Origin: a virus
Lineage: Duplodnaviria; Caudoviricetes
IMG/VR virus record: IMGVR_UViG_3300033121_001921
Coordinates: 16,537 to 80,536 of that record
Length of the DNA: 64,000 bases
Reading direction: 5' to 3' (one strand)
Shown: piece after piece, positions 2,599 through 64,000 of the stretch
How positions within the stretch are numbered: position 1 is the stretch's first letter
How the letters are laid out: each line of letters opens with the position of its first letter
Notes under the pieces: generated by a model
Told to the model about the DNA's origin: nothing
What the model saw: the letters and a program-made list of their open reading frames with translations, nothing else
The model's database searches: none
Position numbers and translations under genes: made by a program

Positions 2599-2834
2599 TA
2601 TTTAGTTTTATTTTGATAAAAGTAAAAGTCTTTAACACACCAGCTGGATTTATTAGCTTTCTTTGATCCCAAACTGCAAAGTATTGTAAATTTCTTTGTT
2701 ATGAGGCTCTCACAAACATACATATATTTTGTGAATCGATGATCATTAGATACCACTCGATAAAGTTTAAACAGTCCGGGCCTTTTCCTATTCTTAAATA
2801 GGCCAGCCACTCTTTTAAGTTTTTTTGTTCCCAT
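2598..2834 (-). CDS. hypothetical basic protein
   Basis: ORF abutting its neighbours in a minus-strand operon. Confidence 0.55.
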   Translation of the reverse strand: MGTKKLKRVAGLFKNRKRPGLFKLYRVVSNDHRFTKYMYVCESLITKKFTILCSLGSKKANKSSWCVKDFYFYQNKTK

Positions 2835-2835
2835 G

Positions 2836-3120
2836 TTAGAATCCTAGTTGTTCAAGTTGATATGCTCTGAATTCCTGTTTTCCGACAGCACCAATCTCAA
2901 ATCCCCTGCGGAAAAAGATATCAAATAGATGCTCATGTCCCATTTCTTTTGCGGCCATGGCTCGATTTATACATTTATGCTCGTCTGTAATTCTATCAGC
3001 CTGGATTTGAGCAAGCTTCATTTGGCGATCCTTGTCACCATTAGACTTAGTAATTATGTCCTCAATGCGAGTGTAGTTTTTAGAAAACTCTCTTTTGGAT
3101 TGTCCTTTATATTTTGGCAT
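2836..3120 (-). CDS. hypothetical protein
   Basis: ORF preceded by a TATATTTG box (3132-3139, minus). Confidence 0.7.
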   Translation of the reverse strand: MPKYKGQSKREFSKNYTRIEDIITKSNGDKDRQMKLAQIQADRITDEHKCINRAMAAKEMGHEHLFDIFFRRGFEIGAVGKQEFRAYQLEQLGF

Positions 3121-3131
3121 TTTGTGAAATA

Positions 3132-3139
3132 CAAATATA
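3132..3139 (-). promoter_or_regulatory. TAnnTTTG Bacteroidota-type -7 promoter box (also at 16712, 24619, 34995, 45745, 54699 on minus; 60490, 62298 on plus)
   Basis: TATATTTG/TAAATTTG/TATCTTTG usually 3-40 nt upstream of starts (the 62298 copy lies further upstream); matches the known Bacteroidota primary-sigma -7 consensus. Confidence 0.6.
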
Positions 3140-3151
3140 GTTGAAAAAATA

Positions 3152-3733
3152 TTATATCCTAATAATTTCTTCCTCTCTTACAGTTCCTATAATTCCTCTT
3201 GATAGATGGTAAATATATCTAAATCCTTGAATATCAATGATATGTATACTATTATAATCAACCCAATAATGTTTATTCTCTTTATTCTCTTTCTTCATTC
3301 GTGATATAATTAAGGATTGAATCTTTTGATTCATAAGGTTATATACCTCCCATTTAAGTCTACTTTCCTTTATGGACATAAGCCTTTTCATTTCATTTCC
3401 AAAAGGAAGAATATCTTCTAAGATCATTGATATTTTACTATCTCGATCCATATCAAAATCTCGAAATGTATATCCGTTGTCTTTTATAATAAATGCTCTA
3501 ATAAACGACTTCTTAGAATCAGTTGAGTTAAAATATACAACATATTCTCCATTTCCTTCACGAGGAATGATTGTTTTCAAATATGTAACATAATCCCAGA
3601 AGTTCTTATTACTCTTTTCAAATCTAAGATTCAGTCTTAGATACAAATCATGTAGATTATTGATATTCCACTTCTTTGGATATCTATTGAATTTTTTATA
3701 GAATTCAGAGTTATTAGAATTTAGCCTAATCAT
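3152..3733 (-). CDS. hypothetical protein
   Basis: 193 aa ORF, ATGA overlap with upstream gene. Confidence 0.7.
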   Translation of the reverse strand: MIRLNSNNSEFYKKFNRYPKKWNINNLHDLYLRLNLRFEKSNKNFWDYVTYLKTIIPREGNGEYVVYFNSTDSKKSFIRAFIIKDNGYTFRDFDMDRDSKISMILEDILPFGNEMKRLMSIKESRLKWEVYNLMNQKIQSLIISRMKKENKENKHYWVDYNSIHIIDIQGFRYIYHLSRGIIGTVREEEIIRI

Positions 3734-4224
3734 GACTTCAAAATATTATCAATTTTTATATCTCTTAATTCAGAATATCTATACTTTCTACTCGGATTAA
3801 ATCCATTTGGATTAAATCCATTTATTCTATTTTTTAGAATGCTTATTTGGTCTTTCTGGAAGAAGATCATGACATCTGCCCTATAAAGAATTTCTGATTC
3901 AACTCTAGAAACGGCTCCATCGATGGTAGCATATGACATTTTTGTTATGATCAAATTTCTATCTCTGGGGAAGCTTTTAATAAAATTTATAAAATCAGTT
4001 TTGAACTCAAATATATTTGATCTTGGTCGAATATTTATTGTGGATACGTCCATAATGACCTTTTTGAAATCACCAATATTTAATTTAGAAATGTCGTCTA
4101 CAAATTCAATTCTGTGGTAATCAGAAAATATTGGAAGAAAGGATTCTAAATGGCGCTCTGAGGCGGCTTGATATCCAATAATTGTTATTGGACTTGATAA
4201 TATGTCCTTTATTAATTCTTGCAA
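3730..4224 (-). CDS. hypothetical protein, possibly a degenerate RecA/DnaB-like fold
   Basis: ADVMIFF...ILKNR resembles the DnaB-family C-terminal motif; no Walker A. Confidence 0.5.
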   Translation of the reverse strand: MQELIKDILSSPITIIGYQAASERHLESFLPIFSDYHRIEFVDDISKLNIGDFKKVIMDVSTINIRPRSNIFEFKTDFINFIKSFPRDRNLIITKMSYATIDGAVSRVESEILYRADVMIFFQKDQISILKNRINGFNPNGFNPSRKYRYSELRDIKIDNILKS

Positions 4225-4526
4225 GATAGTCTCTCTTTTAAGAGTAGTAGCTTGAATTTGCGTTGGGGCGGAAGTTCGAAATCGAATTTCCTTTCAACAT
4301 GATACAGATCAATTATTCTCTTCCTAGCATATATAACATACTCACTAATCTTTCTTTCACGAGCACCATTAATTTCCTTAATGTGGCTCTCGGGGAAATC
4401 GATAGTGAAGTCAACCATTGAAGAAAATTTATTGCACTCTTCTAGAAGAAATTGACGAGCATTATCAAATCCATCCTCAAGATTCTCTACAATCTTTTTG
4501 TCAATATGATGTTTAACCATGCTCAT
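4212..4526 (-). CDS. hypothetical protein
   Basis: ORF overlapping both neighbours. Confidence 0.65.
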   Translation of the reverse strand: MSMVKHHIDKKIVENLEDGFDNARQFLLEECNKFSSMVDFTIDFPESHIKEINGARERKISEYVIYARKRIIDLYHVERKFDFELPPQRKFKLLLLKERLSCKN

Positions 4527-5113
4527 TTTATGATTCGTTTTTTAATACCTAATCCTATCAATAATCCCATCAATGCCCCGCCAACATGTGCAAAATGTGC
4601 AGTGCTACTTTGATAAACTCCAATATGTGAGAGAAGGCCAGATATAGATTCGTATACTAAAAGACCAGCAGCAACGTGTTTAGCCTTAACATTGAAAATA
4701 AAAAATAGAGATAGCTCAGAATTTGGATTTAATATACAAAATAAAAATAATATACCAAAAACTGCCCCTGATGCCCCAATCATTGGTGTGTCAGAATACC
4801 AATTTGTACTCATTGCGAGAATTGCTGCAAAAAGACCAGAACAGAAATAGAATATGCAAAATTTAGTGCTTCCAAGAAGTCTTTCACAAATAGGACCAAA
4901 CATGATAAACGCTAACATATTAAATATTATATGTGCAGGGTAGCCATGCAAAAACATATGTGTTATTAATTGATGAATTTGAAAATGTGGAGACGTGATG
5001 GAAAATAATCCGAAGTTCATAATAGATGTTTCCATTCCTACCCATATCATTAGGAAGAAAGCAGCAACATTTGTTAGCAAAATCCACCTAACTGATTTAG
5101 TTATTTGATCCAT
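4523..5113 (-). CDS. rhomboid-family intramembrane serine protease
   Basis: HIIFNM, catalytic GASG and AHVGG motifs, hydrophobic helices; start set at MDQITK. Confidence 0.92.
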   Translation of the reverse strand: MDQITKSVRWILLTNVAAFFLMIWVGMETSIMNFGLFSITSPHFQIHQLITHMFLHGYPAHIIFNMLAFIMFGPICERLLGSTKFCIFYFCSGLFAAILAMSTNWYSDTPMIGASGAVFGILFLFCILNPNSELSLFFIFNVKAKHVAAGLLVYESISGLLSHIGVYQSSTAHFAHVGGALMGLLIGLGIKKRIIK

Positions 5114-5513
5114 TTTTAGATTTTTTAATACATTCAGGACCGAATCCACTTTCAATCGATTCGGGAGTTGTCAACCTTCGTCCACACCTAGCACAACATC
5201 CTTCGTGCCAAACTTCAATAAACTTAGGAAGGGAAGACATATCCATCTTGCTGATAAACCACTTAAAAACATTTAAGCTGGGAGATCCCTCCTTAATCAG
5301 AGATCTGTTTGATCCTCTAAAGATATTTTGTGGAAAAATGGTACCAAGGAACTCATAGTGATCTGGAGAAGTAAGAACTGATACAAAAAACAGATCGTTG
5401 GATTTCGACTTACCAATTTTAAAGGTAAATCTATTGCCCGTTTTTGGATTTTTTATAGTAAAGATAGATTTTCCCGCAAAGATAAAATCCTTGATTCTAT
5501 CATGAGGAATCAT
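5097..5513 (-). CDS. DUF6011-like zinc-ribbon protein
   Basis: C-terminal CARCGRRLTTPESIESGFGPEC; start set at MIPHDR. Confidence 0.75.
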   Translation of the reverse strand: MIPHDRIKDFIFAGKSIFTIKNPKTGNRFTFKIGKSKSNDLFFVSVLTSPDHYEFLGTIFPQNIFRGSNRSLIKEGSPSLNVFKWFISKMDMSSLPKFIEVWHEGCCARCGRRLTTPESIESGFGPECIKKSKNGSNN

Positions 5514-5562
5514 TTTTACACTCATCCAACAAATATAAGAAATTTTTTCTTCCAATCAAATT

Positions 5563-5570
5563 AATATATA
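5563..5570 (+). promoter_or_regulatory. (A/T)ATATATA putative phage late promoter (also 16714, 18585, 24660, 25622, 28421, 33531, 35029, 37653, 39064, 41387, 50178, 51039, 53844, 54722, 57750)
   Basis: Recurs 3-20 nt upstream of start codons; analogous to the T4 late TATAAATA. Confidence 0.65.
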
Positions 5571-5575
5571 AATCA

Positions 5576-6433
5576 ATGATAAATGAGGCCGTATTCAGAA
5601 GTCCAAAGTGGCTAAGAGATTTTGTAGATTTCGAAGTCAATACAGGTGAAGATATAAAGGGCGAGCCTTCCAAGTCAGAATTGGAGAGGAGACGGAATAA
5701 AGAATGGAAGACAAAATGGGATAGAATCAAGAGGGATGATAAGATTTCCTTTATTGAAGACTACTTGAATTATGATCTTAGAAGGCATAATTCATCAATA
5801 ATAAATGATTTCCTTTCACGAATTGAGAATGATTTTATGGGCGATCAATCATTTATGGATGAATATGATAAGTGGCTGTCTAAGAAAATAGAAGAGAATC
5901 AAAGGCAGAAAAAAATAATTGATACACTAAACCAATTGCATGATAGCATTTGGTCTGATTATATAAAAAATCCCCATGGTGATAAATTCAAAACTCCAAA
6001 TGATAGGCATGGGAATAGATATTGGGAATATAGATTTGAGAATGGAAAAATTTGCCATCTTTCACCATCGACTAATAAATTGGAATTCGATGGTATTACC
6101 TATACACTTAATATTGAATTCAAAAATAAATTCATAGAGCTAGCAAATAGAATTGGTGAGACAAAACAAAGACCAAGAAATGCTAACAATAGGAATAATT
6201 CTTCTAATACAAAGACTAATCAAACAAAGGCAGACCCAAACAGAGAAAGGTATGAAAAGTTGAAGGGAATAGTTAAGATAAGAGAAGAACAATTATACAA
6301 AATGTCCTCTAGAGATCCCAACAGACCTTCACTTCAAAATGAATTAGATGCTTATAAGCAAAAGCTTAGATCTATGAAATCAGAATATAAATTTGAGTCA
6401 CTTATGTCCTTCAGCAACTTTTCAAAATTCTGA
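5576..6433 (+). CDS. hypothetical protein
   Basis: 285 aa ORF behind AATATATA. Confidence 0.75.
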   Translation: MINEAVFRSPKWLRDFVDFEVNTGEDIKGEPSKSELERRRNKEWKTKWDRIKRDDKISFIEDYLNYDLRRHNSSIINDFLSRIENDFMGDQSFMDEYDKWLSKKIEENQRQKKIIDTLNQLHDSIWSDYIKNPHGDKFKTPNDRHGNRYWEYRFENGKICHLSPSTNKLEFDGITYTLNIEFKNKFIELANRIGETKQRPRNANNRNNSSNTKTNQTKADPNRERYEKLKGIVKIREEQLYKMSSRDPNRPSLQNELDAYKQKLRSMKSEYKFESLMSFSNFSKF

Positions 6434-6804
6434 AACATCCAAATAGTGAATAGGAACTTCATCCACAATCTCATGCTTCTCATACAAAAGAATATTCTTT
6501 CCACCAAATTCCCAAGACTGATGTGAAGTGGATTCTAGATCAGACTGTCCGGATTCCTTTCTTCGAATTGAATTGGGATTTGTATAGAATCTTGATATGA
6601 TGCCTACAAGCATGTCCAAATTAGATTGACACTCAGCTGAATTTTCAAAAAATTTTGATATAGATAAATAGTCATCGTTTCCTTGAATATTCCACCCCCA
6701 CTTCATTGAATCTGGAATAGATTTTATTATCTCGGAAAGATTAGTCTGAGACATGGATGATATAGATGTTACCACACCTATCAACAAGGATATTTTAATT
6801 TCAT
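6422..6804 (-). CDS. hypothetical secreted/membrane protein with an apparent 1-nt deletion near the start
   Basis: ATG at 6804 overlaps the topoisomerase stop (ATGA); adding one A to the A-run gives MKLKISLLIGVVTSISS, a signal-peptide-like start. Confidence 0.5.
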
Positions 6805-8120
6805 TTGAATTTCTTTTTAAGTTCTGTTAAATCTTCTAAATACATATTCTTTGGAAGGAGAGATTTAGTCTTCTCAAGTTCGGATTTTCTTTCAAGAAAA
6901 TCTTCTTTTATTTTCTCAAACGTTTCCTTAGTCAATGAATTAATTGGCATTCTCAATAAATAGTCATAGTCTCCTTCTATCTTTTCTATATTTAGAGACT
7001 GAATTTGATCTACAATCTCTGATTTTGGTTTATTGTTTATTAAAATTTTCCCATCCAAGATAAATTTGATAAACTTACCTCTGTTACCTAGTAACTTCAA
7101 ATCATGGGCAATTCTCTCAATTAGATAATCCTTCCTCTTCTGATAGTAGGTTAATCTAAACTCTACAAAATACGAAACGATTTCCTCTACTGATTCAAAT
7201 ATTTTCAGCTTTCCGTTTTCATCAAGAGTTGTATATATCTCTGTTGAATATTCAATCAATTTGAACATCTTACATATTTCATGTTCGGACAGTATCTTCC
7301 CCCTATTCAACTTAACAACATAGTCTATATTGGATTTGCTATTATTCTTGAATGAGATTATGTATTTATCATCAACTAAATTATCCAAAATACTCTCATA
7401 CATTTCATATGTAAATGATGGAGGTATTTCTAAAATTCGTAATGTATTTCCAGATAATTCATATCTTCCCTTTATTATCCATCTCTTGGAATTTTCTTCA
7501 TCTTTGGTGAAGCTACCACTGAAATCATAAATTTCAGGAACCATTTCTTTTATTTTTTCTCCATTTACCGCTCTAATGCAATTATCTATTATAGATACAG
7601 GATTTCTATTCAGAATATTCATTGAAAATCCAACAGCAATTCCAGATCCACCATTTATTAAGATCATTGGTATTATTGGTAGATAAAATTTTGGTTCACA
7701 TTTAACCCCATCAATAGTCACATATTCTAATATTTCATTATCTTTGAATATGTAATCAAATGATTCAGAAATTCGAGTAGATATGTACCTAGAACTAGAG
7801 GCATGTGGATTTCTTAACGATCCATATATACCAATTTCTTCCAACATGGGAATATTGTTCTTAAATTTTTGAGCCATGTTAACCACAGCATCTTCAACAG
7901 AAACATTACCATGATGGTACTGAGTTTTGAAAATAACTTTCCCACCTAGAACATTAACTTTTATTTTCTCCCTTTTTTCTGAACTTAAAGAAAATAAAAT
8001 CTTCCTCTGAACAGGCTTCAGTCCATCACAAAAGCTTGGAATTGATCTGTTTTCTATAACATAGAAAGCAAATTTTTTGTAATCATTATCTAGAAAATTC
8101 GAAATACTAACGTTGTTCAT
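6801..8120 (-). CDS. DNA topoisomerase II, GyrA/ParC-like subunit (T4 gp52-like)
   Basis: DGLKPVQRKI, YHHGNVS, SSRY active-site Tyr, GIAVGF. Confidence 0.95.
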   Translation of the reverse strand: MNNVSISNFLDNDYKKFAFYVIENRSIPSFCDGLKPVQRKILFSLSSEKREKIKVNVLGGKVIFKTQYHHGNVSVEDAVVNMAQKFKNNIPMLEEIGIYGSLRNPHASSSRYISTRISESFDYIFKDNEILEYVTIDGVKCEPKFYLPIIPMILINGGSGIAVGFSMNILNRNPVSIIDNCIRAVNGEKIKEMVPEIYDFSGSFTKDEENSKRWIIKGRYELSGNTLRILEIPPSFTYEMYESILDNLVDDKYIISFKNNSKSNIDYVVKLNRGKILSEHEICKMFKLIEYSTEIYTTLDENGKLKIFESVEEIVSYFVEFRLTYYQKRKDYLIERIAHDLKLLGNRGKFIKFILDGKILINNKPKSEIVDQIQSLNIEKIEGDYDYLLRMPINSLTKETFEKIKEDFLERKSELEKTKSLLPKNMYLEDLTELKKKFK

Positions 8121-54734: not shown

Positions 54735-55286
54735 ATGGAAATTAAAAAATTTGTTGATTTCATTAGAGAAAGCATATCAGATACTCCCGAGGAGTATATA
54801 AAAATGGAATTAACAAAATTGAAGAGAAAAATAGATGGATTCTTCGAAAAGAAAGAAGAAGAATCTGATGGGAATAAGGTTTCAAATATGTCTGACGCCC
54901 TAAAAAAGGGGAAGGATCAAGAAAAATCAGAAAAAACTATATCATTTTCTGAACTTGGTCTTCAACTACAAAGCTCTGAAATAAGTAAATACTCAGCTCT
55001 ATATGATAATTTAGTGGTAAAATTTTCTGATGATGAGTTTCTTTATAATCTTTATGTTACAATTCCCCTAAAAGAAGCAGTTCCAGAAGAAGATGGAGAA
55101 TCAAAGAACATAAAAAAATGCTTCCTTAAATTCAAGAAATATGATCTAGATCACTTTGATTTAATTGGGCAGATCACAAGAAATACAGATATCGATAAAA
55201 TCGACGAAGATTATTTAGTATCTCTTAAGATAGATTTAGACGATGAATTTGATAAGAAAGAGGATTTAGGAATCGAAACCGAGTAA
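54735..55286 (+). CDS. hypothetical protein with CTS-like start
   Basis: MEIKKFVDFIRES, behind TATATATA. Confidence 0.75.
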   Translation: MEIKKFVDFIRESISDTPEEYIKMELTKLKRKIDGFFEKKEEESDGNKVSNMSDALKKGKDQEKSEKTISFSELGLQLQSSEISKYSALYDNLVVKFSDDEFLYNLYVTIPLKEAVPEEDGESKNIKKCFLKFKKYDLDHFDLIGQITRNTDIDKIDEDYLVSLKIDLDDEFDKKEDLGIETE

Positions 55287-55296
55287 TATATTCAAT

Positions 55297-55470
55297 ATGA
55301 ATAGGATGAAATCATTTAATGACTTTTCACATCTTCGTAAAGATATCTATAAAGATTTTGGATCAACTAATAGAGAAATAAACGAAATAGAGGTGTTAAG
55401 ACATATTGAAAATTTCATTATAGAAAATAAAATTGATGGACACAGAAAATGCAGACACGGTAAAGAATAA
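55297..55470 (+). CDS. 57 aa hypothetical protein immediately left of the array
   Basis: MNRMKSFNDFSHLRK...GKE*, translated by hand. Confidence 0.5.
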   Translation: MNRMKSFNDFSHLRKDIYKDFGSTNREINEIEVLRHIENFIIENKIDGHRKCRHGKE

Positions 55471-55491
55471 TTTTTAATCTATTTTTATTGT

Positions 55492-55545
55492 ACATAACGT
55501 CCGATGATAAACAATCGTTTTAATGTTGTTTATCATTTGTTATGT
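55492..55545 (+). repeat. hairpin H1 (near-identical to H14)
   Basis: acataac-gtccg-atgataaacaa/ttgtttatcat-tt-gttatgt. Confidence 0.9.
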
Positions 55546-55625
55546 GTAGGTGTGGATTATTAAGGTAGAATGTTTAATCGAAGAACTGAACAAAAATTTT
55601 AAAAGAAAAAGAAGGGTGAGAAGTT

Positions 55626-55907
55626 TTAATTCTTAAAGATTAATGAAAAATCATAGTTATCATATCCTTCTACAATTCTTATTTTTACACCTGTTATATG
55701 TCCGAATGAGCCATACCCAAATTCTTTACCTGTTGATTTTGTTATTTGTCTCCATTCAGTTTTGGAAATATTGTGAATAGGTATATCCTTACCTAAAATA
55801 TCTTCCATCTCCTTTAATGATTTTTCATAGTGTTCATCTTTTGGTTTCCCTATAATTAATCCAGGAAACATATTTTTGCTGTGAATTTCTTCAATTCTTA
55901 TTTTCAT
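55626..55907 (-). CDS. cassette hypothetical protein
   Basis: 93 aa ORF. Confidence 0.65.
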   Translation of the reverse strand: MKIRIEEIHSKNMFPGLIIGKPKDEHYEKSLKEMEDILGKDIPIHNISKTEWRQITKSTGKEFGYGSFGHITGVKIRIVEGYDNYDFSLIFKN

Positions 55908-55954
55908 AATTTTTTATTTTTAAAGATTTCTTTTCAATGTCTTTAAGTTCGTCT

Positions 55955-56080
55955 TTACCTCTTCCAAATTGTTACTACTTCAATAACACCACCACTCTTA
56001 ATATCGGTGTTTATACTTTCGTTTAAGAATTGTCCAAAATTCTTAACTTTATTTATTTGTTCTCTCATTTCTTTACTCAT
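55955..56080 (-). CDS. 41 aa ORF MSKEMREQINKVKNFGQFLNES..., starting in the H2 loop
   Basis: Hand translation; CTS-like KNFGQFLNES. Confidence 0.5.
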   Translation of the reverse strand: MSKEMREQINKVKNFGQFLNESINTDIKSGGVIEVVTIWKR

Positions 56081-56159
56081 AATTTTACTTTACTATCAAG
56101 TTTAGTGGTAAATTGAAAGTTCATCAAAGCAAACCTTCTCATACACCCAACCGTTATGT
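55996..56159 (-). repeat. hairpin H2 (left arm and loop like H7; right arm degenerate)
   Basis: acataac-ggttg-ggtgtatgagaaggtttgct on minus; GTT box apparently ATT. Confidence 0.65.
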
Positions 56160-56176
56160 GTAATAAAAAATAATTA

Positions 56177-56539
56177 TTATCCACTAAATGAAGCATCTCT
56201 ATCAGATACCATCCAACCATTGAGCATACTGGCTGGTCCATATATTCTCAAATTTTTAATGCTTGTTTTTTCTAAATGTTTTTTAATAGAATATAAAAGA
56301 TTTTTCACATTAGCTCTGCGAATACCATTATTAGATTCAGTTCTTAAAAGTTCTAATTTAGCAACTGAACTTGCTTTAAGTCCAAAATTAGTTTTATCTA
56401 TTATTGATTCCAAATAATCTAACATTTCATCATTAGAACCATTTTTTATTAAATTATCTATTTCTTTAATATATTTACGGTTTAGTGTTTTCCTAATTAA
56501 AGATTCATTAAGTTCATCAAATCTTTTGATATGTTTCAT
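56177..56539 (-). CDS. cassette protein with CTS-like start
   Basis: MKHIKRFDELNES. Confidence 0.75.
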   Translation of the reverse strand: MKHIKRFDELNESLIRKTLNRKYIKEIDNLIKNGSNDEMLDYLESIIDKTNFGLKASSVAKLELLRTESNNGIRRANVKNLLYSIKKHLEKTSIKNLRIYGPASMLNGWMVSDRDASFSG

Positions 56540-56564
56540 ATTGTATTAATTATTTTTTAATAAC

Positions 56565-56665
56565 ACATAACAAGGTGTATATGTAAGTTTTTTATTAGTT
56601 TTTTATTAGTGTATATATTAAAAAAAAATGTGAAAAAAACCTACATATACACCCAACCGTTATAG
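56565..56665 (-). repeat. hairpin H3 (loop contains AATATATAC)
   Basis: ggtgtatatgtaggttttt/aaaaacttacatatacacc stem. Confidence 0.9.
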
Positions 56666-56712
56666 GTAATTGTTTTAAAAATTCCCACACTCCTTAACAA
56701 TTTTCTTATTAA

Positions 56713-56868
56713 TTAACCTTGTTTATATTCTTGCAATACATACGGTAAATTCATTGAACTTACTCTGTTTTTGCTTTCATAAATAAATTGCCCGTGTTCG
56801 TTTTTTACGGCATCAATTTCTTTACAAAATTCTAATTCGTCTTTAATTAATTCGGTCATTGCATCCAT
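56713..56868 (-). CDS. small cassette protein MDAMTELIKDEL...
   Basis: Hand translation, 51 aa; possible 1-nt deletion at the 3' end. Confidence 0.55.
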   Translation of the reverse strand: MDAMTELIKDELEFCKEIDAVKNEHGQFIYESKNRVSSMNLPYVLQEYKQG

Positions 56869-56913
56869 TTTATTTAAGTTTAATTTACCAACGCTAATTT
56901 TTAAAACAACTAC

Positions 56914-57041
56914 CTATAACATAGTGTATATGTAATGTGAGGTTCAGTTGTATATTCAAAGTTTATATTTCTAATCAACATTTGTGGTTAAGTCAAGTTT
57001 CGTGTTTCAAATCTCACACTACATATACACAATCGTTCTGC
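56914..57041 (-). repeat. hairpin H4 (near-identical to H10, inverted)
   Basis: gtgtatatgtagtgtgag/ctcacattacatatacac stem. Confidence 0.9.
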
Positions 57042-57045
57042 GCAA

Positions 57046-57347
57046 TCATGAAACGAACAGCCGAACGGTCACAGGGCCTTCGCGGAAGTCGCCAGTGATT
57101 GTGCCGTCCACGTATTGCTCGTCACCCTTGCGGAAGTTCTTCCACTTCCATGGGAGCGGCGTTGCATCGTAATCGCCTTGACCAAGGCCAACGGCAGCAT
57201 TGAGCAGGTGCTGCCTGCCGTGAAGCCTTTGGCCTCAGCCCACGCCTGGGCCGCGTAGTATGCCTCCCATGTTCCCTTGTTATCGAACGTGGCCTGCTCC
57301 ACCACTGGCTTATTGACCCTGACCGTTCCACCTATTCGCTTTCGCAT
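57046..57347 (-). CDS. GC-rich (about 61%) cassette gene with a 1-nt frameshift at about 57178
   Basis: MRKRIGGTV...LALVK/GDYDATPLPWKWKNF...GPVTVRLFVS*. Confidence 0.7.
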
Positions 57348-57381
57348 TATTGTTGAGTTTTGAGTGAGTTGAAAAGACCGC

Positions 57382-57459
57382 GCAGAACATGCAGCTATGC
57401 GGCATGCCTCAACACAGGTCCAACGCGCTGCACGCCGCATAGCTGCTGAACCGTTATAT
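57382..57459 (-). repeat. hairpin H5 (GC-rich)
   Basis: gcagctatgcggc/gccgcatagctgc perfect 13-bp stem. Confidence 0.9.
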
Positions 57460-57537
57460 TCAATTAAACAAAAAATTATGAGTTTTTAATTGCTTCTAAT
57501 ATTTGTTGTTATATTTAGTAAAAATTAATTTATACCT

Positions 57538-57702
57538 ATGAAAAAAGAACAATATGCAGTTTATGAAAAAGAACCAAGACACGGAAAAGATAAAAACGGA
57601 GTGATACTTGCACCATTTAACACTAAGGAAGAAGCCGAAGAAGCAGGTAAGAAATATGGTTATTATGGTGATAATTACTATGTAGATAAACTCATAAATT
57701 AA
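57538..57702 (+). CDS. 54 aa cassette protein MKKEQYAVYEKEPRHG...
   Basis: Hand translation. Confidence 0.65.
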   Translation: MKKEQYAVYEKEPRHGKDKNGVILAPFNTKEEAEEAGKKYGYYGDNYYVDKLIN

Positions 57703-57712
57703 TTTTTATCGA

Positions 57713-57847
57713 ATATAACGGTTCTCAGATATATTTAGGTTTTCATTTTAATATATACACTAAAATAACAAAAGAAGATGAAACTTTTAAAAACACAAAA
57801 ACAGTTGAACGAAGCATCGGAAAACTTGAATATATCTGATGTTAGTG
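57713..57847 (+). repeat. hairpin H6 (loop holds AATATATAC and an ATG)
   Basis: tcagatatatttaggtttt/aaaacttgaatatatctga stem. Confidence 0.9.
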
Positions 57848-58119
57848 AGAGTAAAAAATTAGACAAAACTCTATCAAACCCCGAGTTCGATAATCTTATC
57901 GATAAATTATCTGAGATGGGTGTATCACATGATGACGTAGAAAAGTTTAAAGAGTATTCAATCGAATTTGAGAACGAAAATGATGAATATGAAAAGAAGG
58001 CGATTTTAGATACATTCTCATTAGATATATCAATGGATTATGAAAGTTTATACGATGAAGTGGAAGATGATATATCAGACTTATATTATGAGACAGGATT
58101 AGACCCTATGGAGTTTTAA
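57778..58119 (+). CDS. acidic cassette protein starting inside H6
   Basis: MKLLKTQKQLNEASENLNISD|V; GTT is in frame. Confidence 0.75.
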   Translation: MKLLKTQKQLNEASENLNISDVSESKKLDKTLSNPEFDNLIDKLSEMGVSHDDVEKFKEYSIEFENENDEYEKKAILDTFSLDISMDYESLYDEVEDDISDLYYETGLDPMEF

Positions 58120-58130
58120 TTTTTTATTCT

Positions 58131-58225
58131 TACTAACGTTTGGGTGTATGAGAAGGTTTGCTTTGATGAACTTTCAAAATCACCACTAAACTTGATAGCA
58201 AACTTTCTTATACACCTTGTTATAT
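58131..58225 (+). repeat. hairpin H7
   Basis: ggtgtatgagaaggtttgct/agcaaactttcttatacacc stem. Confidence 0.9.
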
Positions 58226-58343
58226 GCTGTGCGGATTTAACCACTAAACTACCTACGAAGAACAGAACCTTTTTGTTTTATTTTTGTGGGTGGAAAATTA
58301 AAATTTGAATATTTATATATATATAATAAAACTATTTAATAGT

Positions 58344-58799
58344 ATGGAATTAAGAAAATTTATAGCAACTACTATACGTGAATATTTGAATGAAAGTCAA
58401 ATCGAACAAATTAGAAATACTGGGCTATCAGTTAGTAATAAAATTGAAGGTGGCTTTTTAACTAAAAAAGAAGTTGATGAACTTCAAAGAGAAATTGAAT
58501 CAAATTATGATACAACACCTAAATTTGGACAAGATAGTAATGACATAAGAAAACGTTTGTATAATTATGATAATCCTTATGCAGAAAAAGATATTAATGG
58601 TGTTAATTTAAGAATAGTACAAGGTTTGATAGAGGGTGAGCCATATTCTGGTAATAGAAGAAAAACTTGGTTATTATATGCTGATGGTAAAATTGTTGGT
58701 AAATTTTATAAAGTGGATGATATTAAAAAAGTTATTAAACATATTGAAGATAATTTAGTTAAATCAATATCTAATAATCCAAAAGAATTGGGTGGGTAA
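58344..58799 (+). CDS. cassette protein with CTS-like start
   Basis: MELRKFIATTIREYLNES, behind a TATATATA tract. Confidence 0.75.
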   Translation: MELRKFIATTIREYLNESQIEQIRNTGLSVSNKIEGGFLTKKEVDELQREIESNYDTTPKFGQDSNDIRKRLYNYDNPYAEKDINGVNLRIVQGLIEGEPYSGNRRKTWLLYADGKIVGKFYKVDDIKKVIKHIEDNLVKSISNNPKELGG

Positions 58800-58858
58800 A
58801 AATAAAACAAAAAGAATGTTACGATGAAACTTAATATGAAGTACCAATGTAGCATTGC

Positions 58859-58988
58859 ATATAACGGCTGCGTGTATGAAACGTAATGGATTAGATGCAC
58901 TAAACTTTAAACATAAAATGAACTATAATAGAAATATGAACTTTAAATATACCACTGAAACCATTATGTTTTATACACGATGTTAGCA
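58859..58988 (+). repeat. hairpin H8
   Basis: gtgtatgaaacgtaatgg/ccattatgttttatacac stem. Confidence 0.9.
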
Positions 58989-59077
58989 GTAGTACGGATT
59001 TAAACCACAAATGCTCAATCGAAGAACTGAACCTTTTTTTCTTTTCTTTTTGTGCGGTGGGAAAATAAAATTGAATA

Positions 59078-59875
59078 ATGGAACGAAATATAATTTATAA
59101 CGAAGATTGTAAGATTACCTTGAAAAAACTTCAAGATAAATCTATTGATGGTGTAATTACATCACCACCATATAATATAAATACTGAAAGAAGCGATTGT
59201 TATTACAATAACGGATATTCTGAATTGGATGGGTTAAGTGAAAATGATTATCTTGAAGTAAGAACTAATGAATTTAAAGAATTTTCAAGAGTGATAAATG
59301 ATACTGGTGTAATTTGCTATAACATATCTTATGCAAAAGAAAATCCAATACTACCAACATTGTTGGTTGCTAAAATTCACAATGAAACTGATTTAACTAT
59401 TGCGGATATTATTTGTTGGAAGAAACCAAATGCTATACCTTTTCAGACTTCACCAACTAAATTGAGTAGGATTACTGAATTGATTTATGTTTTTGTGAAG
59501 AAAGAGCATTTACACACATTCAAAACCAACAAGGAAGTAAGTAAGGTAAATAAAAAAACAGGTCAAAAGTTTTACAAAAACTATGTGAATTATATTGAAG
59601 CAAGAAACAATGACGGATACCAATGTCAATTGAAAGCATCATTTTCGCAAGATTTAGTAAATCAATTAATAAATATTTATTTTCCAAAAGGTAGTTTAAT
59701 TTACGAACCGTTTACTGGAATAGGGACTACACAATTAAGTTGTATTGAAAATGAATGTGATTACATTGGTAGTGAATTAGTAAAAGACCATTATGAAATT
59801 GCTTTAGAGAGGGTTAGAGAAAAAAGAAAAGAAAAAGAATTTAATCTAATAACTTCATTCGGAGATGGGATGTAG
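59078..59875 (+). CDS. N6/N4 DNA methyltransferase (beta-class motif order), solitary
   Basis: TSPPYN precedes YEPFTGIGTT. Confidence 0.9.
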   Translation: MERNIIYNEDCKITLKKLQDKSIDGVITSPPYNINTERSDCYYNNGYSELDGLSENDYLEVRTNEFKEFSRVINDTGVICYNISYAKENPILPTLLVAKIHNETDLTIADIICWKKPNAIPFQTSPTKLSRITELIYVFVKKEHLHTFKTNKEVSKVNKKTGQKFYKNYVNYIEARNNDGYQCQLKASFSQDLVNQLINIYFPKGSLIYEPFTGIGTTQLSCIENECDYIGSELVKDHYEIALERVREKRKEKEFNLITSFGDGM

Positions 59876-59881
59876 TATTAC

Positions 59882-59939
59882 TGCTAACGGACAGGCATTG
59901 CCGCCGTTGCATTTGAATGGCGGCAATGCAGTGTTAGGC
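59882..59939 (+). repeat. hairpin H9 (GC-rich)
   Basis: gcattgccgcc/ggcggcaatgc stem. Confidence 0.9.
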
Positions 59940-59971
59940 CACGTTCTTTTAACTTTCAAAAGCAAAAGGCA

Positions 59972-60235
59972 ATGAAGCGATTTCACGAAACCGCTGATGG
60001 CAAGTTCATTGAACTAAAGGACTTGACAGACGAGCACCTTGCCAACATCATAAAGATGATTGAACGCAAGGCCAAGGATGGCATTGATCTCGTGTTCGGC
60101 GGAGGACACGGTGATTACGAAGAAATGTGGGGTGATGTTGAACACCTGCATGGGCAGGAAGTCTTTGACCACTTCGGGTACGAGAAGTACAAGAAAGAGC
60201 AGCGTCGTCGTATTCGTCTTCGGAATGTGGCCTAA
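59972..60235 (+). CDS. cassette protein (about 48% GC); stop TAA lies inside the terminal TAAC box
   Basis: ELKDLTDEHLANII...; GCC TAA C. Confidence 0.75.
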   Translation: MKRFHETADGKFIELKDLTDEHLANIIKMIERKAKDGIDLVFGGGHGDYEEMWGDVEHLHGQEVFDHFGYEKYKKEQRRRIRLRNVA

Positions 60236-60358
60236 CGATTTGGTGTATATGTAGTGTGAGATTTGAAACACTAAACTTGACTGAACTACAAATGTTGATT
60301 AGAATGATGAACTTGAATATACCACTGAACCTCACATTACATATACACCTTGTTATGT
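60230..60358 (+). repeat. hairpin H10
   Basis: ggtgtatatgtagtgtgag/ctcacattacatatacacc stem. Confidence 0.9.
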
Positions 60359-60536
60359 GTAGGTGTGCTTATTTATCACCAACCTTCAATCGGAGAACTG
60401 AAAGAAAATTTTAGAAAAAAGAAGGGAGGGAAATTTTTAATAATTTTTAATCTTTGTGTCCTTAAATTTTTTATTTAAGAATTTTTTGTTATATTTGTAG
60501 AGTTGAATTAGTATTAATAACTAAATAAAAAATAAA

Positions 60537-61115
60537 ATGAATATAAATGAATTAACAAACCCAATAAAAGTGTGTGATTTATCATTAAACGAAAATGACA
60601 ATGATAGAGCATTGTGGAATATAACATGGAACAGAGATGTTGATAACACAATCCTTTCACAGAAAAATGGTAGATGTTATTATATTGTTGTTAATGGTGA
60701 AATATTCAAGATAGGATATTCAGATTGTGATGGTGGTATAAAATCAACCATAGGCTCATATAGAAGTTCTGGTAATTCCGGGAGACCTTCTGATAGAACA
60801 CATGGTATTCATGTTTTAATAGCGGAGCAATTATTATTAGGCAATAAAGTTGAAATATACTTTCATTATAATCCACTTATAAATGTTAATTTAACACTTA
60901 TGGATGGTTCTGTTGTTTCAATAGAAAATTCAATTTCTGGTAAAATATTAGAATTAAAAAACATGGAAATATATAAAAATAAACATAATGATTTTCCTGT
61001 TTGGAATTTACAAGAGGCTGGAAAACCTTGGCCGACACACATACAAGAAAGTAGAAATAACTTATTATCGGGAAATCCTTTAAAATTAAATGAAATAAAA
61101 GAAAGATTATTTTAA
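60537..61115 (+). CDS. putative GIY-YIG restriction-type endonuclease (Hpy188I-like)
   Basis: GRCYYIVVNGEIFKIGYSD...IKSTIGSY...VEIYF pattern, recalled similarity only. Confidence 0.55.
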   Translation: MNINELTNPIKVCDLSLNENDNDRALWNITWNRDVDNTILSQKNGRCYYIVVNGEIFKIGYSDCDGGIKSTIGSYRSSGNSGRPSDRTHGIHVLIAEQLLLGNKVEIYFHYNPLINVNLTLMDGSVVSIENSISGKILELKNMEIYKNKHNDFPVWNLQEAGKPWPTHIQESRNNLLSGNPLKLNEIKERLF

Positions 61116-62011
61116 TCTTTCTTTTTAACTATTAATATTTCGTGTGATTTTTTAACTACTTCACTATTGTTCAATTCTATTCTATTCTTACCAATTCTTT
61201 TTTCACCATTACTCATAGAATAATTCCACTCTGGAAAATAAAAATCAAAATCTTTGTAGTATTCTCTTATTGTTTCACAATTATTATACGAAAGGACAAA
61301 ATCACCATTATGTGATAATAGTAAATCTCTTAATAATTCGTGATCAAAACCACTATGATGAACATCTATATTTTTCATCGGATACATACCTTTGTGCATT
61401 TTATTATCACTATCTTTATCTAAAAAATAAGGTGGGTCAAGATACAAAAAATCGTTTTTATGTTTTATTATAGATTTTTCAAATGGTAATTGTTCAACTT
61501 TTAGATTATCACATTTGAAATCTTTTATTTTATCTATCATAGATCTCCATTTTTTATCATTTAGATAAACACTTGAACCCCAACCTAAATAACCTGGACC
61601 ATAAGAACAATTGTGATTGAAATAATAATATGCTGCCAACTTTATATCATCCAACTTTATTATATTTTCTCTTTTGTAGTGATCAGTATTCCAATCTTTC
61701 AACATTTCTTGCGTCTTATCTAAACACATCAATATTTCTTTAATTCTAATATACTCACTATCTGTTGGTTGTATTTTTAATAACTCATTATACAATTCTT
61801 TTGGTTTGTTTAGTAATATATTCCAAAAATTAACAAGTACATCAAATACATCATATCCAACAACTTCTTTATTTAGGTTTCCTGACCAATGGACTTCAAG
61901 GGATCCACCACCAATAAAGGGAGATACTATTTTATCATATTTTTCAACAAATGGTGTTATCTGTTTAATGGCTTTACTTTTACCACCAGCATATCTTAAT
62001 AATGTTTTCAT
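61112..62011 (-). CDS. D12/Dam-class N6-adenine DNA methyltransferase
   Basis: LRYAGGKSK, SPFIGGGS, YLDPPY. Confidence 0.92.
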   Translation of the reverse strand: MKTLLRYAGGKSKAIKQITPFVEKYDKIVSPFIGGGSLEVHWSGNLNKEVVGYDVFDVLVNFWNILLNKPKELYNELLKIQPTDSEYIRIKEILMCLDKTQEMLKDWNTDHYKRENIIKLDDIKLAAYYYFNHNCSYGPGYLGWGSSVYLNDKKWRSMIDKIKDFKCDNLKVEQLPFEKSIIKHKNDFLYLDPPYFLDKDSDNKMHKGMYPMKNIDVHHSGFDHELLRDLLLSHNGDFVLSYNNCETIREYYKDFDFYFPEWNYSMSNGEKRIGKNRIELNNSEVVKKSHEILIVKKKD

Positions 62012-62137
62012 AAATAAATTTCTTTTTCTTTTATATATTAAATTCCAAAATTAGTTTTCTGTATTTTCTGTAAAATAAATAAAACTTTATGAAATAATTA
62101 ATATATAAATTATAGTAGAAAAATTAAAAATAGTTTG

Positions 62138-62287
62138 ATGAAAAAGAGACGAGATAAAGAATACTTTACATTAAATCCAGAAGTTAGAAAAGAATTTCTA
62201 AAACATATAGAGGAAAATAACCTAAATAAATCAAAGTTGATAGAAACTCTTATAGAGGAATATATGAAAAAAGTTAAAGAAAAATAA
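62138..62287 (+). CDS. 49 aa ribbon-helix-helix-like putative regulator
   Basis: MKKRRDKEYFTLNPEVRKEF...NKSKLIETLIEEYM, hand translation. Confidence 0.55.
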   Translation: MKKRRDKEYFTLNPEVRKEFLKHIEENNLNKSKLIETLIEEYMKKVKEK

Positions 62288-62395
62288 AAAAATTTCTTAT
62301 CTTTGTGTTCTTAAAAAATTATTAAAAATGTGCGGTGGGTTTTTTCTAAAATTTTCTAACACAAAAGTTGATTCGGAGGACAGAACCACACTTAC

Positions 62396-62584
62396 ACATA
62401 ACGGTAGGGCGGTTGGCGCAGTGCGTATTATTAACGATAAACTAAATTAGAATGAAAGCAGAAGATTTTTACAAACAACGAAGCAACTCAATAAGGGAGT
62501 TGTGGGCATTATCACCAAAGCAAATTGAATACATAGGTTTGATTATGGAAGAGTATGCAGCATTGCGCCAACCGCCTGTTAGCA
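62396..62584 (+). repeat. hairpin H11 (loop encodes the first part of an ORF)
   Basis: ggcggttggcgcagtgc/gcattgcgccaaccgcc stem. Confidence 0.9.
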
Positions 62585-62676
62585 GCAGTTTTTCATCTGA
62601 AAGCGACCATATTTGTATGATGTACTTAGATAAGCAAAGAACTTGTATGGTTTGCGGTAAACAAAATTGCTGCTAA
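62452..62676 (+). CDS. 74 aa protein spanning H11 and a 100-bp cassette
   Basis: ...ALRQPP|VSSS...CMVCGKQNCC, stop in TAAC. Confidence 0.7.
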   Translation: MKAEDFYKQRSNSIRELWALSPKQIEYIGLIMEEYAALRQPPVSSSFSSESDHICMMYLDKQRTCMVCGKQNCC

Positions 62677-62791
62677 CGTTTTGCGTATATACGCAGTGCA
62701 ACCGAAAACTTTATTTGAAACACAAAAATTGAAATTATGATAAAAAATTTGATTGAAAAACTGAAAGCATTGCGTATATACGCTGTTATAA
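62671..62791 (+). repeat. hairpin H12 (ATG in loop)
   Basis: gcgtatatacgcagtgc/gcattgcgtatatacgc stem. Confidence 0.9.
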
Positions 62792-62991
62792 GCCGTTTTT
62801 TATTTCCATACAAAACTTGGATTGAAATGAGAGAAAAATCTAAAGACGAGTATGGAGAAAAATTATGCTACTGTGGACATACCTATAAATGCACTTGTTC
62901 CAATCCAGATAAAACTTTGTTTAAGGAAAGTATAAAACGTGGTAGTATAATTTTATGGGATAAAGAGAACGGTTGGAAAAATGGCTTATAA
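62737..62991 (+). CDS. 84 aa protein starting inside H12
   Basis: MIKNLIEKLKALRIYA|VISR...CYCGHTYKCTC, stop in TAAC. Confidence 0.72.
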   Translation: MIKNLIEKLKALRIYAVISRFLFPYKTWIEMREKSKDEYGEKLCYCGHTYKCTCSNPDKTLFKESIKRGSIILWDKENGWKNGL

Positions 62992-63116
62992 CGGCTGACG
63001 CTATACGAAGGTGGGGATTAAGATGCACAACCCTTGCTTACCGCACAAAAGCAAATTAGATGCACAACTGTACAATTTTGGCACACAGCCCCACTTTTGT
63101 ATAGCGTATGTTATAG
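62986..63116 (+). repeat. hairpin H13
   Basis: acgctatacgaaggtgggg/ccccacttttgtatagcgt stem. Confidence 0.9.
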
Positions 63117-63134
63117 GCTGTTAAAAAGAATTTT

Positions 63135-63386
63135 ATGACAACTGTTAAAGAACTTAGAGAATTACTCGCAACAATGCCTGATGATTATGAAGTGGTTATT
63201 TATCCGAAATATTCATCCGATAAAGTTGATGGATATAGAAAGCACAGATTTAGAATTGACCAAGTTTGTGAACAAGAACCGTATGCTGTATCAATTAAAG
63301 ACGATGCTGAAAAATTAAAAACTTATTTCGGGAGTAAAGATTATGAAGAATATGAGGTAAATAACCACGTAGCTATTCTTTTTTAA
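63135..63386 (+). CDS. cassette hypothetical protein
   Basis: MTTVKELRELLATMPDDYEV. Confidence 0.75.
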   Translation: MTTVKELRELLATMPDDYEVVIYPKYSSDKVDGYRKHRFRIDQVCEQEPYAVSIKDDAEKLKTYFGSKDYEEYEVNNHVAILF

Positions 63387-63390
63387 TTGC

Positions 63391-63444
63391 CTATAACGTC
63401 TGATGATAAACAATCGTTTTAATGTTGTTTATCATTTGTTATAT
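63391..63444 (+). repeat. hairpin H14 (near-identical to H1)
   Basis: atgataaacaa/ttgtttatcat stem. Confidence 0.9.
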
Positions 63445-63477
63445 TTTAGTATCAAAAATTTTATACAAATTAAAAAT

Positions 63478-63849
63478 ATGAAAAAAGAAAAAGCGGAAAA
63501 GGAAATAAAACAACTATTAGATAGTGGTTTAAGTTTTGATTACAAAATTGATATGAATATCATAAATAAACAAATGTTCTGTATTGAACGGGAAGGATTT
63601 TCTATGGGCGATATTATATCAAAACTTAAAGAAGGTGAGAAAATTTTGTTCTATCTTAACGATGGTTATAGATCAGATTGGGATGATAAGAAAGGATATT
63701 CACCTCTTTATCAAATAAAAGATAGAGAAGGAAGTATCTATTGGAAACATGACACTTATGGAGAGTGTGTTCGTATAGATAGTGATATGGGTTCAATCAG
63801 AGAATGGTGTAACGAATTAAACGAAATTTATAGTATAAAAAATTCATAA
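63478..63849 (+). CDS. cassette hypothetical protein
   Basis: Start set at MKKEKAEKEI. Confidence 0.7.
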   Translation: MKKEKAEKEIKQLLDSGLSFDYKIDMNIINKQMFCIEREGFSMGDIISKLKEGEKILFYLNDGYRSDWDDKKGYSPLYQIKDREGSIYWKHDTYGECVRIDSDMGSIREWCNELNEIYSIKNS

Positions 63850-63864
63850 AATTTTTGATATTGA

Positions 63865-63995
63865 ATATAACGGTTGCAGATATACTCAATTTGGGATTAA
63901 ATAGTAGAAACTTTAAAATTAAGATAAAATGAATAAAGAGAAACAAGAGTGGGATAAACATCTAACACCCAAATTGGGTATATCTGATGTTATGC
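63865..63995 (+). repeat. hairpin H15 (ATG in loop)
   Basis: cagatatactcaatttggg/cccaaattgggtatatctg stem. Confidence 0.9.
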
Positions 63996-64000
63996 AACGT
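63929..64000 (+). CDS. partial ORF starting inside H15
   Basis: MNKEKQEWDKHLTPKLGISD|VMQR, GTT in frame. Confidence 0.6.
   Translation, partial: MNKEKQEWDKHLTPKLGISDVMQR

Follow-up and report, generated by a model that had tools for sequence, protein, structure and literature searches.

A probable integron-like cassette array in a large phage, with each hairpin carried 5′ of its gene

Introduction

To which of its two neighboring genes does an intergenic recombination hairpin belong? The question is raised by the right end of a 64,000-nucleotide (nt) stretch of phage DNA (hereafter, the window), which makes up the last 64 kb of the 80.5-kb IMG/VR record IMGVR_UViG_3300033121_001921 (Duplodnaviria; Caudoviricetes). 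From position 55488 to 64000, where it runs off the contig end, the window carries an array on mixed strands in which hairpin-containing sites, at least 15 over 8.5 kb, separate each small gene from the next. No further sites of this type were found elsewhere in the 80.5-kb record. Since CheckV rates this record as 28% complete, the phage is large. Where the crossover lies and which strand reacts depend on the gene to which a folded site is tied, and so does the mode of expression: cassettes either rely on a shared promoter, as in integrons, or are self-contained.

From the GC content of two gene bodies and their hairpins, a sequence-only reading of the window had proposed that the hairpin travels with the downstream gene, that the crossover lies on the AAC-G side of the site, and that the cassettes are inverted relative to classical integrons, bring their own 5′ region, and are imported from genomes of very different composition. 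Here, we compare the array with related loci and with near-identical strains. The region 55488–64000 is most likely a phage-borne, integron-like array of units made of a 5′ hairpin and a gene, swapped by site-specific recombination at AAC, with a Xer-like tyrosine recombinase as the likely enzyme.

Results

Read on the strand of the genes, the sites have the form ...YTAAC-G-(3 to 5 nt)-stem (12 to 24 bp)-loop (11 to 135 nt)-stem-(1 to 4 nt)-GTTAY.... Sites and genes lie on the + strand in the right part of the array (57717–64000) and on the − strand in the block 55626–57455. Each gene body begins with GTT and 7 nt (together, R′) and finishes with the complementary 7 nt and AAC (R″). For comparison, 128 loci with sites of this type were taken from GenBank phages, IMG/VR, and Joint Genome Institute metagenomes, and 342 oriented sites were called; a 15-mer scan of IMG/VR gave many matches that are probably due to chance, and the analysis used only loci with structured sites. 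Across 246 cassettes from the related loci, R′ and R″ are complementary over exactly 10 nt in 104 cassettes and over 9 nt in 53, and over a longer stretch in none, while random pairs, and pairs across a hairpin, are complementary over just 4 to 5 nt. This sharp stop at 10 nt suggests a duplex arm defined by a protein rather than general selection for pairing. Examples of 10-nt complementarity in the window are 59933/60236 and 62578/62677.

The hairpins fold as drawn. Folding energies of H5 and H9, the two hairpins on which the initial proposal was based, are −18 to −21 kcal/mol (z scores of −2.2 and −3.3). The order of parts in the sites resembles that of attC sites, and stems covary under a constant loop. 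This is clearest in a short hairpin type with the invariant loop (T)CGTTTTAATG, found at 55496–55541 and 63395–63440 of the window and at 41 sites in other loci: it has at least 12 different stems, all of which are fully compensatory. Such covariation is a strong indication that both the structure and the loop sequence are recognized.

Two cassettes stand out by their base composition. In cassette A, on the − strand, site H5 (57386–57455) reads GAATATAAC-G-GTTC-stem (57446–57430)-loop-stem (57407–57391)-T-GTTCTGCGC, and the body (57035–57388) consists of R′ GTTCTGCGC (57388–57380), gene A (start at 57350, end at 57049), and R″ GCGCAGAAC (57043–57035). It is followed by site H4 (56918–57037, − strand), the reverse complement of the H10 family, which belongs to the next unit (gene 56868–56713) and not to gene A. 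In cassette B, on the + strand, site H9 (59886–59935) reads CTGCTAAC-G-GACA-GGCATTGCCGCC-loop-GGCGGCAATGC-AGT-GTTAGGCCAC, and the body (59933–60236) consists of R′ GTTAGGCCAC (59933–59942), a leader, gene B (59972–60235; 87 amino acids), and R″ GTGGCCTAAC (60227–60236), inside which lies the stop codon of the gene. The site that follows, H10 (60234–60354, + strand), travels with the downstream leader element and a 2-kb body (60352–62402) and not with gene B; its matches extend over 60233–60489 in three related loci (L093, L101, and L112).

The window as a whole has a GC content of 31.2%. For body A, we calculated 56.2% (58.2% in the 57069–57350 part of its open reading frame, ORF) and, for H5, 59.7% over 57389–57455 and 64.3% in the stem-loop. 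Body B has 47.4%, and H9 has 56 to 58%. H4 (28.3%) and H10 (33.3%) are AT-rich like the phage, as had been stated from the sequence alone. The hand counts made at that time for H5 (61%), body B (48%), and H9 (57%) were right as well, while that for body A (61%) was about 5 points too high. Only 3 of the 294 distinct hairpins of the window and the 128 related loci have a GC content of 0.55 or more, namely, H5, H9, and a hairpin at 1585–1636 of locus L116, while just three GC-rich bodies longer than 300 nt were found, each of them immediately preceded by one of these hairpins. In L116, the unit again begins with a short GC-rich hairpin of this kind; its leader is like that of gene B, and its gene is a different one. 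Over 231 nonredundant cassettes, the GC content of the body correlates with that of the upstream hairpin (Spearman coefficient of 0.36 to 0.40, P of 1e-8 to 1e-10), compared to 0.08 to 0.18 for the downstream hairpin. The match of H5 and H9 with the genes that follow them is far beyond chance.

The same direction of linkage is seen when flanks are compared between loci. Among hairpin-homologous pairs, the downstream flank only was shared in 215, the upstream flank only in 2, both flanks in 24, and neither in 1290. Under strict criteria (flanks of at least 110 nt, at least 85% identity, nonredundant pairs), 24 of 36 pairs with the same downstream and different upstream flanks shared the hairpin; in the converse case, this was so for 2 of 9 pairs, both probably from duplicate contigs, since the loci carry identical cassettes. 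For homologous bodies found in new contexts, the four best cases have identities of 0.97/0.61, 0.93/0.30, 0.91/0.69, and 0.72/0.23 for the upstream/downstream hairpin.

We also looked for the hairpin attached to other copies of gene B. Locus L006, in another AT-rich phage contig, contains a copy of gene B that is 99% identical. On the downstream side, homology ends precisely behind CCTAAC-G, and the hairpin there is a different one; on the upstream side, the copy retains R′ and the 3′ arm of H9. A 70% relative in locus L007 lies in a context of ~50% GC, in a tight operon without hairpins. In L006, an 84-codon ORF (2750–3004) begins in AT-rich phage DNA, crosses 170 nt of GC-rich sequence, the H9 3′ arm, and R′, and stops 1 nt inside gene B; R′ of cassette B may have lain inside a former donor gene. 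R″ of this cassette contains codons conserved by gene B homologs (..NVA*). Both observations bear on the origin of cassettes.

Twenty public runs contain the stretch; they come from 12 studies that sampled wastewater, activated sludge, or river water. We compared contigs of near-identical strains from four runs in four wastewater or sludge studies (X2, X10, X14, and X18) over positions 55000–64000. In X2 and X10, a joint 59884→62399 with the shared word TAACGG removes H9 with body B and H10 with its 2-kb body together. This crossover interval (59885–59890, + strand) is the left edge of unit B, and its partners are 62399–62404 in X2 and X10, 62670 in X14, and an S7-type hairpin in X18. A second interval, TAACGT (62674–62679, + strand), is joined to 63394–63399 in X10 and X18, again two studies (joint 62673→63394; the shorter side is 121 nt in X18), with the loss of two hairpin-gene units. 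A 2507-nt X14 contig with 0 to 1 mismatches has the joint 59880→62670 within the shared word CTGCTAACG and also a 970-nt insert that directly follows ...TATAAC (62991) and directly precedes the next hairpin. In X18, the body of the methylase cassette (58981–59889) is followed by AACG and then by the S7-type hairpin; across strains, four different hairpins follow this body. A variant contig of X10 lacks H5 together with gene A (57030→57449).

All listed unit-boundary joints fall within TAACGG, TAACGT, or CTGCTAACG, and no joint of whole-unit gain or loss at the GTT side was found among those listed; a listed substitution (58223→58288) starts just past the GTT of S7. The joint 55913→60682 and joints between copies of a leader element described below were set aside as repeat cross-mapping. 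The shared words are 6 to 9 nt long, which is too short for homologous recombination or for assembly artifacts with k = 31. The hairpins that flank an exchanged unit are unrelated to each other (H9 compared to S11 and S12).

Could the hairpin nevertheless belong to the upstream gene, as in classical integrons, with the crossover at G^TT after the hairpin and the GC content of H5 and H9 being coincidental? The order after each ORF is indeed attC-like (RYYYAAC...GTTRRRY), and three weakly homologous body pairs favor the downstream hairpin over the upstream one (0.43 versus 0.68, 0.41 versus 0.64, and 0.19 versus 0.47), but identities of 0.64 to 0.68 fall in the top 10% of the random hairpin-pair background. 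Classical linkage is also opposed by the AAC-side position of the strain joints, the four different hairpins after the methylase body, the other hairpin after gene B in L006, the ratio of 2 to 215 in flank sharing, and the location of all three GC-rich hairpins upstream of GC-rich bodies. We consider this explanation largely refuted and extremely improbable. That the hairpin travels with the downstream gene, as was originally claimed, is borne out by the gain and loss of units between strains, by the L006 copy, and by the flank comparison.

Which enzyme could act at these sites? When ORFs of at least 120 codons near arrays were clustered, one family dominated: a tyrosine recombinase of 264 to 277 amino acids. 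In 14 of 14 related arrays, its gene follows immediately after the array at the downstream end and shares the strand of the sites and the genes; the records behind L116 and L020 (G002 and G003) contain it as well. The best match of the protein is XerA/XerD-like; with the integron integrase model TIGR02249, it scores 147.7 bits compared to a cutoff of 265. Aligned with VchIntIA (Protein Data Bank entry 2a3v), query residues 178 to 200 stand opposite residues 180 to 245 of the chain, so that ~43 residues of the IntI insertion are missing.

In 11 of 13 loci, and also in L134 and L135, a non-hairpin, attI-like site lies 50 to 70 nt before the start of the recombinase gene; it reads ...YATAAC followed by TA(T)TATATAT, that is, AAC followed by TATTATATAT. 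The last cassette of the relatives ends with ...AAC directly before this site. At hairpins, AAC is followed by G, and at the attI-like site, by T, which places the exchange point in or directly after AAC. The strain joints and the attI-like site together support a crossover in, or immediately after, the AAC that precedes the hairpin. The proposal of an AAC-G side crossover stands in this respect; the exact bond, CG^TT or C^GTT on the opposite strand, is beyond the resolution of the joints, AA^C and AAC^ being indistinguishable.

Seen from the opposite strand, the related arrays have the recombinase gene directed outward, the attI-like site beside the 5′ end of this gene, and the crossover at the ..C/GTT end of each site, on the side far from the recombinase. 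This layout is integron geometry with the genes on the other strand. For 221 of 230 cassettes, the site strand is also that of the longest ORF, and the co-orientation of genes and downstream recombinase in the 14 related arrays agrees with the earlier view that the cassettes are inverted relative to classical integrons.

The boxes of the site often overlap with coding sequence: among the 221 sense cassettes from related loci, the TAA of the terminal TAAC is the stop codon of the ORF in 31, and the longest ORF begins within the upstream hairpin in 81. The claim that cassettes bring their own 5′ region holds insofar as the hairpin and leader travel together with the gene and many ORFs have their start codon in the loop. 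That the loop also contains a promoter is unsupported, since the Bacteroidota −7 promoter motif TAnnTTTG is neither enriched nor strand-biased in the hairpins. A scan of the hairpins against Rfam gave no family match, with one hairpin having a sub-threshold miRNA-like match.

Strand-specific cutting next to a hairpin is also what a HUH enzyme of the IS200/IS605 type would do, by single-strand transposition with cleavage after TAAC. Insertion is always 3′ of TAAC, the hairpin is a few nucleotides from the cut, the orientation is fixed, and the spacer is often GGTT, which is complementary to AAC. However, the corresponding Y1 transposase domain (PF01797) is absent from the record of the window and from five array-bearing records (one a complete genome, most of them incomplete), and the Xer-like tyrosine recombinase is the one recurrent large gene beside the arrays. 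We regard transposition of this kind as very unlikely.

Yet another explanation would leave the array static: the hairpins would be purely regulatory (terminators, RNA processing sites, or leaders), and the GC-rich stretches would be ordinary horizontal acquisitions. Hairpins between genes, start codons in some loops, and the absence of a visible enzyme in this record fit such a view, which is nonetheless practically excluded in our estimation by cassette-precise presence and absence between strains, exact 10-nt terminal inverted repeats around bodies, occurrence of the same sites in unrelated phages of 38 kb to over 600 kb, linkage of the recombinase to the arrays, and the lack of an Rfam family.

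Several observations weigh against recombinase-driven exchange of hairpin-gene units at AAC. No tyrosine recombinase (PF00589) is found in the 80.5-kb record, and in the window, the attI-like word occurs no more often than expected by chance. The record ends inside the + strand array, and since relatives have the recombinase and the attI-like site past the array end, this absence may be an artifact. The complete genome of the cultured 38-kb Flavobacterium phage mymlan6-1 (MN812227) has arrays and no tyrosine recombinase either. Judging from its genome, mymlan6-1 is a true CALIN-like phage (a CALIN being a cluster of at least two attC-like sites within a few kilobases with no integrase nearby) and would need an enzyme supplied in trans. 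Its array, at about 1787–8030 on the − strand, contains four methylases, and there is no HUH gene. Two of the strain joints have short sides (24 to 30 nt), and reads were placed at 90% likeness. In L006, the upstream break is inside the H9 loop and not at AAC-G, with ~170 nt of other GC-rich sequence before it, so that this copy is not a clean unit. Hairpins differ in 11 of the 36 strictly selected pairs with the same downstream flank. The commonest version of the short hairpin with the CGTTTTAATG loop precedes at least eight different R′ boxes; most of the hairpin homology between loci begins at TAAC and ends at GTTA; and a leader element that starts at GTT, the second element, is found after either S1- or S10-type hairpins.

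The last three observations are what would be expected if hairpins and bodies were independent modules in loose linkage, exchanged at both AAC and GTT by a second crossover, gene conversion, or short-homology recombination like that of promoter-early stem-loop (PeSL) cassettes. The methylase cassette of mymlan6-1, which has neither hairpin of its counterpart in the window, would fit as well. But recent whole-unit events at the strain level are all on the AAC side, linkage is strongly asymmetric, and junction homology is just 6 to 9 nt. Homogeneous attC sites on unrelated cassettes are also usual in chromosomal integrons, despite their single crossover point. Independent modules are, in our judgment, unlikely, though they deserve some weight. 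We read the link of hairpin and body in the preferred hairpin-gene units as statistical, not absolute, which would allow for hairpins being replaced or for exchange, at a lower rate, at the GTT side.

The methylase cassette of the window is ~90% identical to the mymlan6-1 cassette (L001/L004) at its 5′ end (R′ and leader) and its 3′ end (the last ~100 nt and R″), while the methylase bodies and both hairpins differ. Body replacement within conserved cassette ends is also seen in metagenome contigs (joints 59069→59808 and 58393→58799).

Where do cassettes A and B come from? Both lack a function in Pfam or PHROGs. The closest homologs of gene B (P0002 to P0005) are 83 to 93% identical, and that of gene A (P0013) is 63% identical. 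Gene A has a −1 frameshift near 57170–57180, in a short G run; its halves, in different frames, jointly match metagenome proteins of 92 to 97 amino acids (P0013 and others), with the C-terminal part matching residues 48 to 93. The frameshift may be a real pseudogene mutation or an assembly error; no indel at this place was found among the listed variant rows of metagenome contigs. A word-based search for homologs of the C-terminal part among longer proteins found nothing, and blastn of 57030–57460 against GenBank phages gave no match. Relatives of gene A are found in contexts of 30 to 65% GC. It is plausible that cassette A (H5 and gene A, 56 to 60% GC) and cassette B (H9 and gene B, 47 to 57% GC) were imported from GC-richer genomes. 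The suggestion that cassettes arrive from genomes of different composition is likewise plausible, given three GC-rich units with GC-rich hairpins and homologs in contexts of 50 to 65% GC.

A homolog of gene A also lies inside a cassette at 2240–3100 of L133, a contig of a Chitinophagaceae metagenome-assembled genome (JAIXOS010000310.1), bracketed by GTTGCACGTT...AACGTGCAAC and by GC-rich hairpins of ~150 nt with the same architecture. The system, or phages that carry it, thus reaches other Bacteroidota lineages.

Other parts of the array have features of their own. The block 55626–57719 contains four cassettes in − orientation. One body in it, 57453–57719 (gene 57538–57702), has no hairpin of its own and is the pivot between two divergent arrays, as the AAC-G sides of H5 (− strand) and S6 (+ strand) stand head-to-head around it. 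S2 (56090–56170) is the 5′ half only of an S7-type hairpin. The second element follows several hairpins (55539–55625, 58222–58300, 58985–59075, 60352–60440, and, in part, 62330–62397); from its initial GTT, it continues with ...TCGAAGAACTGAAC..., a T- or A-rich run, and then GTGGGTGGAAAA. It is present in dozens of other phage contigs, has no match in Rfam, and may be a leader or a phage promoter module. The 2-kb body 60352–62402 is one cassette with a 14/15-nt terminal repeat. It contains an endonuclease-like gene (phrog_1111; 60537–61115), a convergent Dam-type methylase gene (61112–62011), and a small gene, and it may be a restriction-modification–like or homing module that travels as one cassette. 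This body is partly replaced in other strains (joints 60502→62064 and 60557→62275).

Discussion

The array shares much with integrons, in particular with sedentary chromosomal ones: single-gene cassettes separated by imperfect hairpins with ...AAC and GTT... boxes; a start box complementary to the end box of the cassette; gain and loss of whole cassettes at one short conserved word; homogeneous hairpin families on unrelated genes; and, in the relatives, a tyrosine recombinase gene with its 5′ end by a simple attI-like site at one array end. It differs in its strands: with reference to the recombinase and the crossover, the genes are on the other strand and the hairpin is 5′ of the gene, so that neither a G^TT crossover with attC 3′ of the gene nor transcription of promoterless cassettes away from the integrase is seen. 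As the genes point toward the recombinase (221 of 230 ORFs on the site strand, recombinase downstream in 14 of 14 arrays), a Pc-type promoter cannot drive them. Instead of an IntI-type integrase, the relatives encode a short recombinase of the Xer-like type that lacks the IntI-specific insertion; the R boxes are 10 nt long and variable beyond TAAC/GTTA; and the hosts of the array are phages of Bacteroidota-like composition.

Since at least 15 sites occur in 8.5 kb with no integrase nearby, the window itself has the features of a CALIN, in a record that is incomplete. CALINs were reported in virulent phages, such as Polaribacter phage P12002L and a methylase-bearing myovirus, by Qi et al. 2023 (PMC9892861), who regarded the sites as normal attC sites of integrons, assayed them with IntI1, and interpreted them as a route taken by bacterial cassettes. 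As in our array, attC-like sites surround small genes, including orphan DNA methyltransferases, in lytic phages, one of them with a flavobacterial host, and IntI is absent; a phage-encoded Xer-like recombinase, linkage of a 5′ hairpin to its gene, and reversed gene orientation are not part of that report (PMC9892861).

PeSL cassettes of T4-type phages (Arbiol et al. 2010, PMC2839356; Comeau et al. 2014, PMC4122927) likewise consist of conserved stem-loops flanking small variable genes in hyperplastic regions of large phages. Their stem-loops mark the borders of insertions, deletions, and replacements and give 5′ regulatory sequence to the downstream gene, a feature shared with the array. PeSLs are thought to use homologous recombination between repeats of ~50 nt and contain a sigma-70 early promoter, while the array has junctions of 6 to 9 nt, 10-nt terminal inverted repeats, and a linked tyrosine recombinase. 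Homology of ~50 nt in a promoter and stem-loop is thus not what the junctions share, and the promoter motif scanned for, the Bacteroidota TAnnTTTG, is unenriched. IS200/IS605 elements, with their TnpA Y1 HUH enzyme, share strand-specific, hairpin-guided cutting by a 4-nt word, insertion 3′ of that word, and fixed orientation; the phage units instead form tandem arrays beside a tyrosine recombinase, and no TnpA gene was found in the records searched. We found no description in the literature of an array linked to a Xer-like recombinase with 5′-hairpin cassettes, and the system is apparently undescribed beyond the report of CALINs in phages.

We propose the following model. The mobile unit consists of G-spacer-hairpin-GTT and 7 nt (R′), a leader, the gene, and 7 nt and AAC (R″), with the hairpin 5′ of the gene on the coding strand. 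The exchange point corresponds, on the opposite strand, to the C/G^TT position of the integron R′ box. In the excised circle, the 10-nt R″ and R′ would pair to form a recombinase-binding arm beside the hairpin stem, which would yield an attC-like site folded from single-stranded DNA. The reaction would probably be performed on the coding strand by the short (264 to 277 amino acids) Xer-like tyrosine recombinase encoded, in relatives, at the downstream array end beside AAC-TATTATATAT. The H5 and H9 hairpins may have been made in GC-richer genomes with the same site type, and cassettes A and B would be recent imports.

These results add the direction of linkage, the crossover interval, and GC tracers of import to the integron principle. 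They offer a concrete model for cassette exchange, in which a Xer-like enzyme cuts at AAC on the coding strand. The comparisons support phage cassettes that would be self-contained, each mobile gene bringing its own leader, while a promoter in the hairpin is unsupported. Self-contained cassettes would allow anti-restriction methylases and many small genes of no known role to be swapped among unrelated phages and still be expressed. GC-rich units are natural markers with which the flow of cassettes between the phage populations of different hosts could be traced. It is fairly probable that Bacteroidota phages that range from siphoviruses of 38 kb to megaphages have in common a gene-exchange analog of the integron, with a short Xer-like recombinase, a reacting coding strand, and cassettes made self-sufficient by their own 5′ hairpin and leader and, sometimes, start codon. 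If so, cassettes could move between phages whose hosts differ greatly in base composition, as units A and B suggest.

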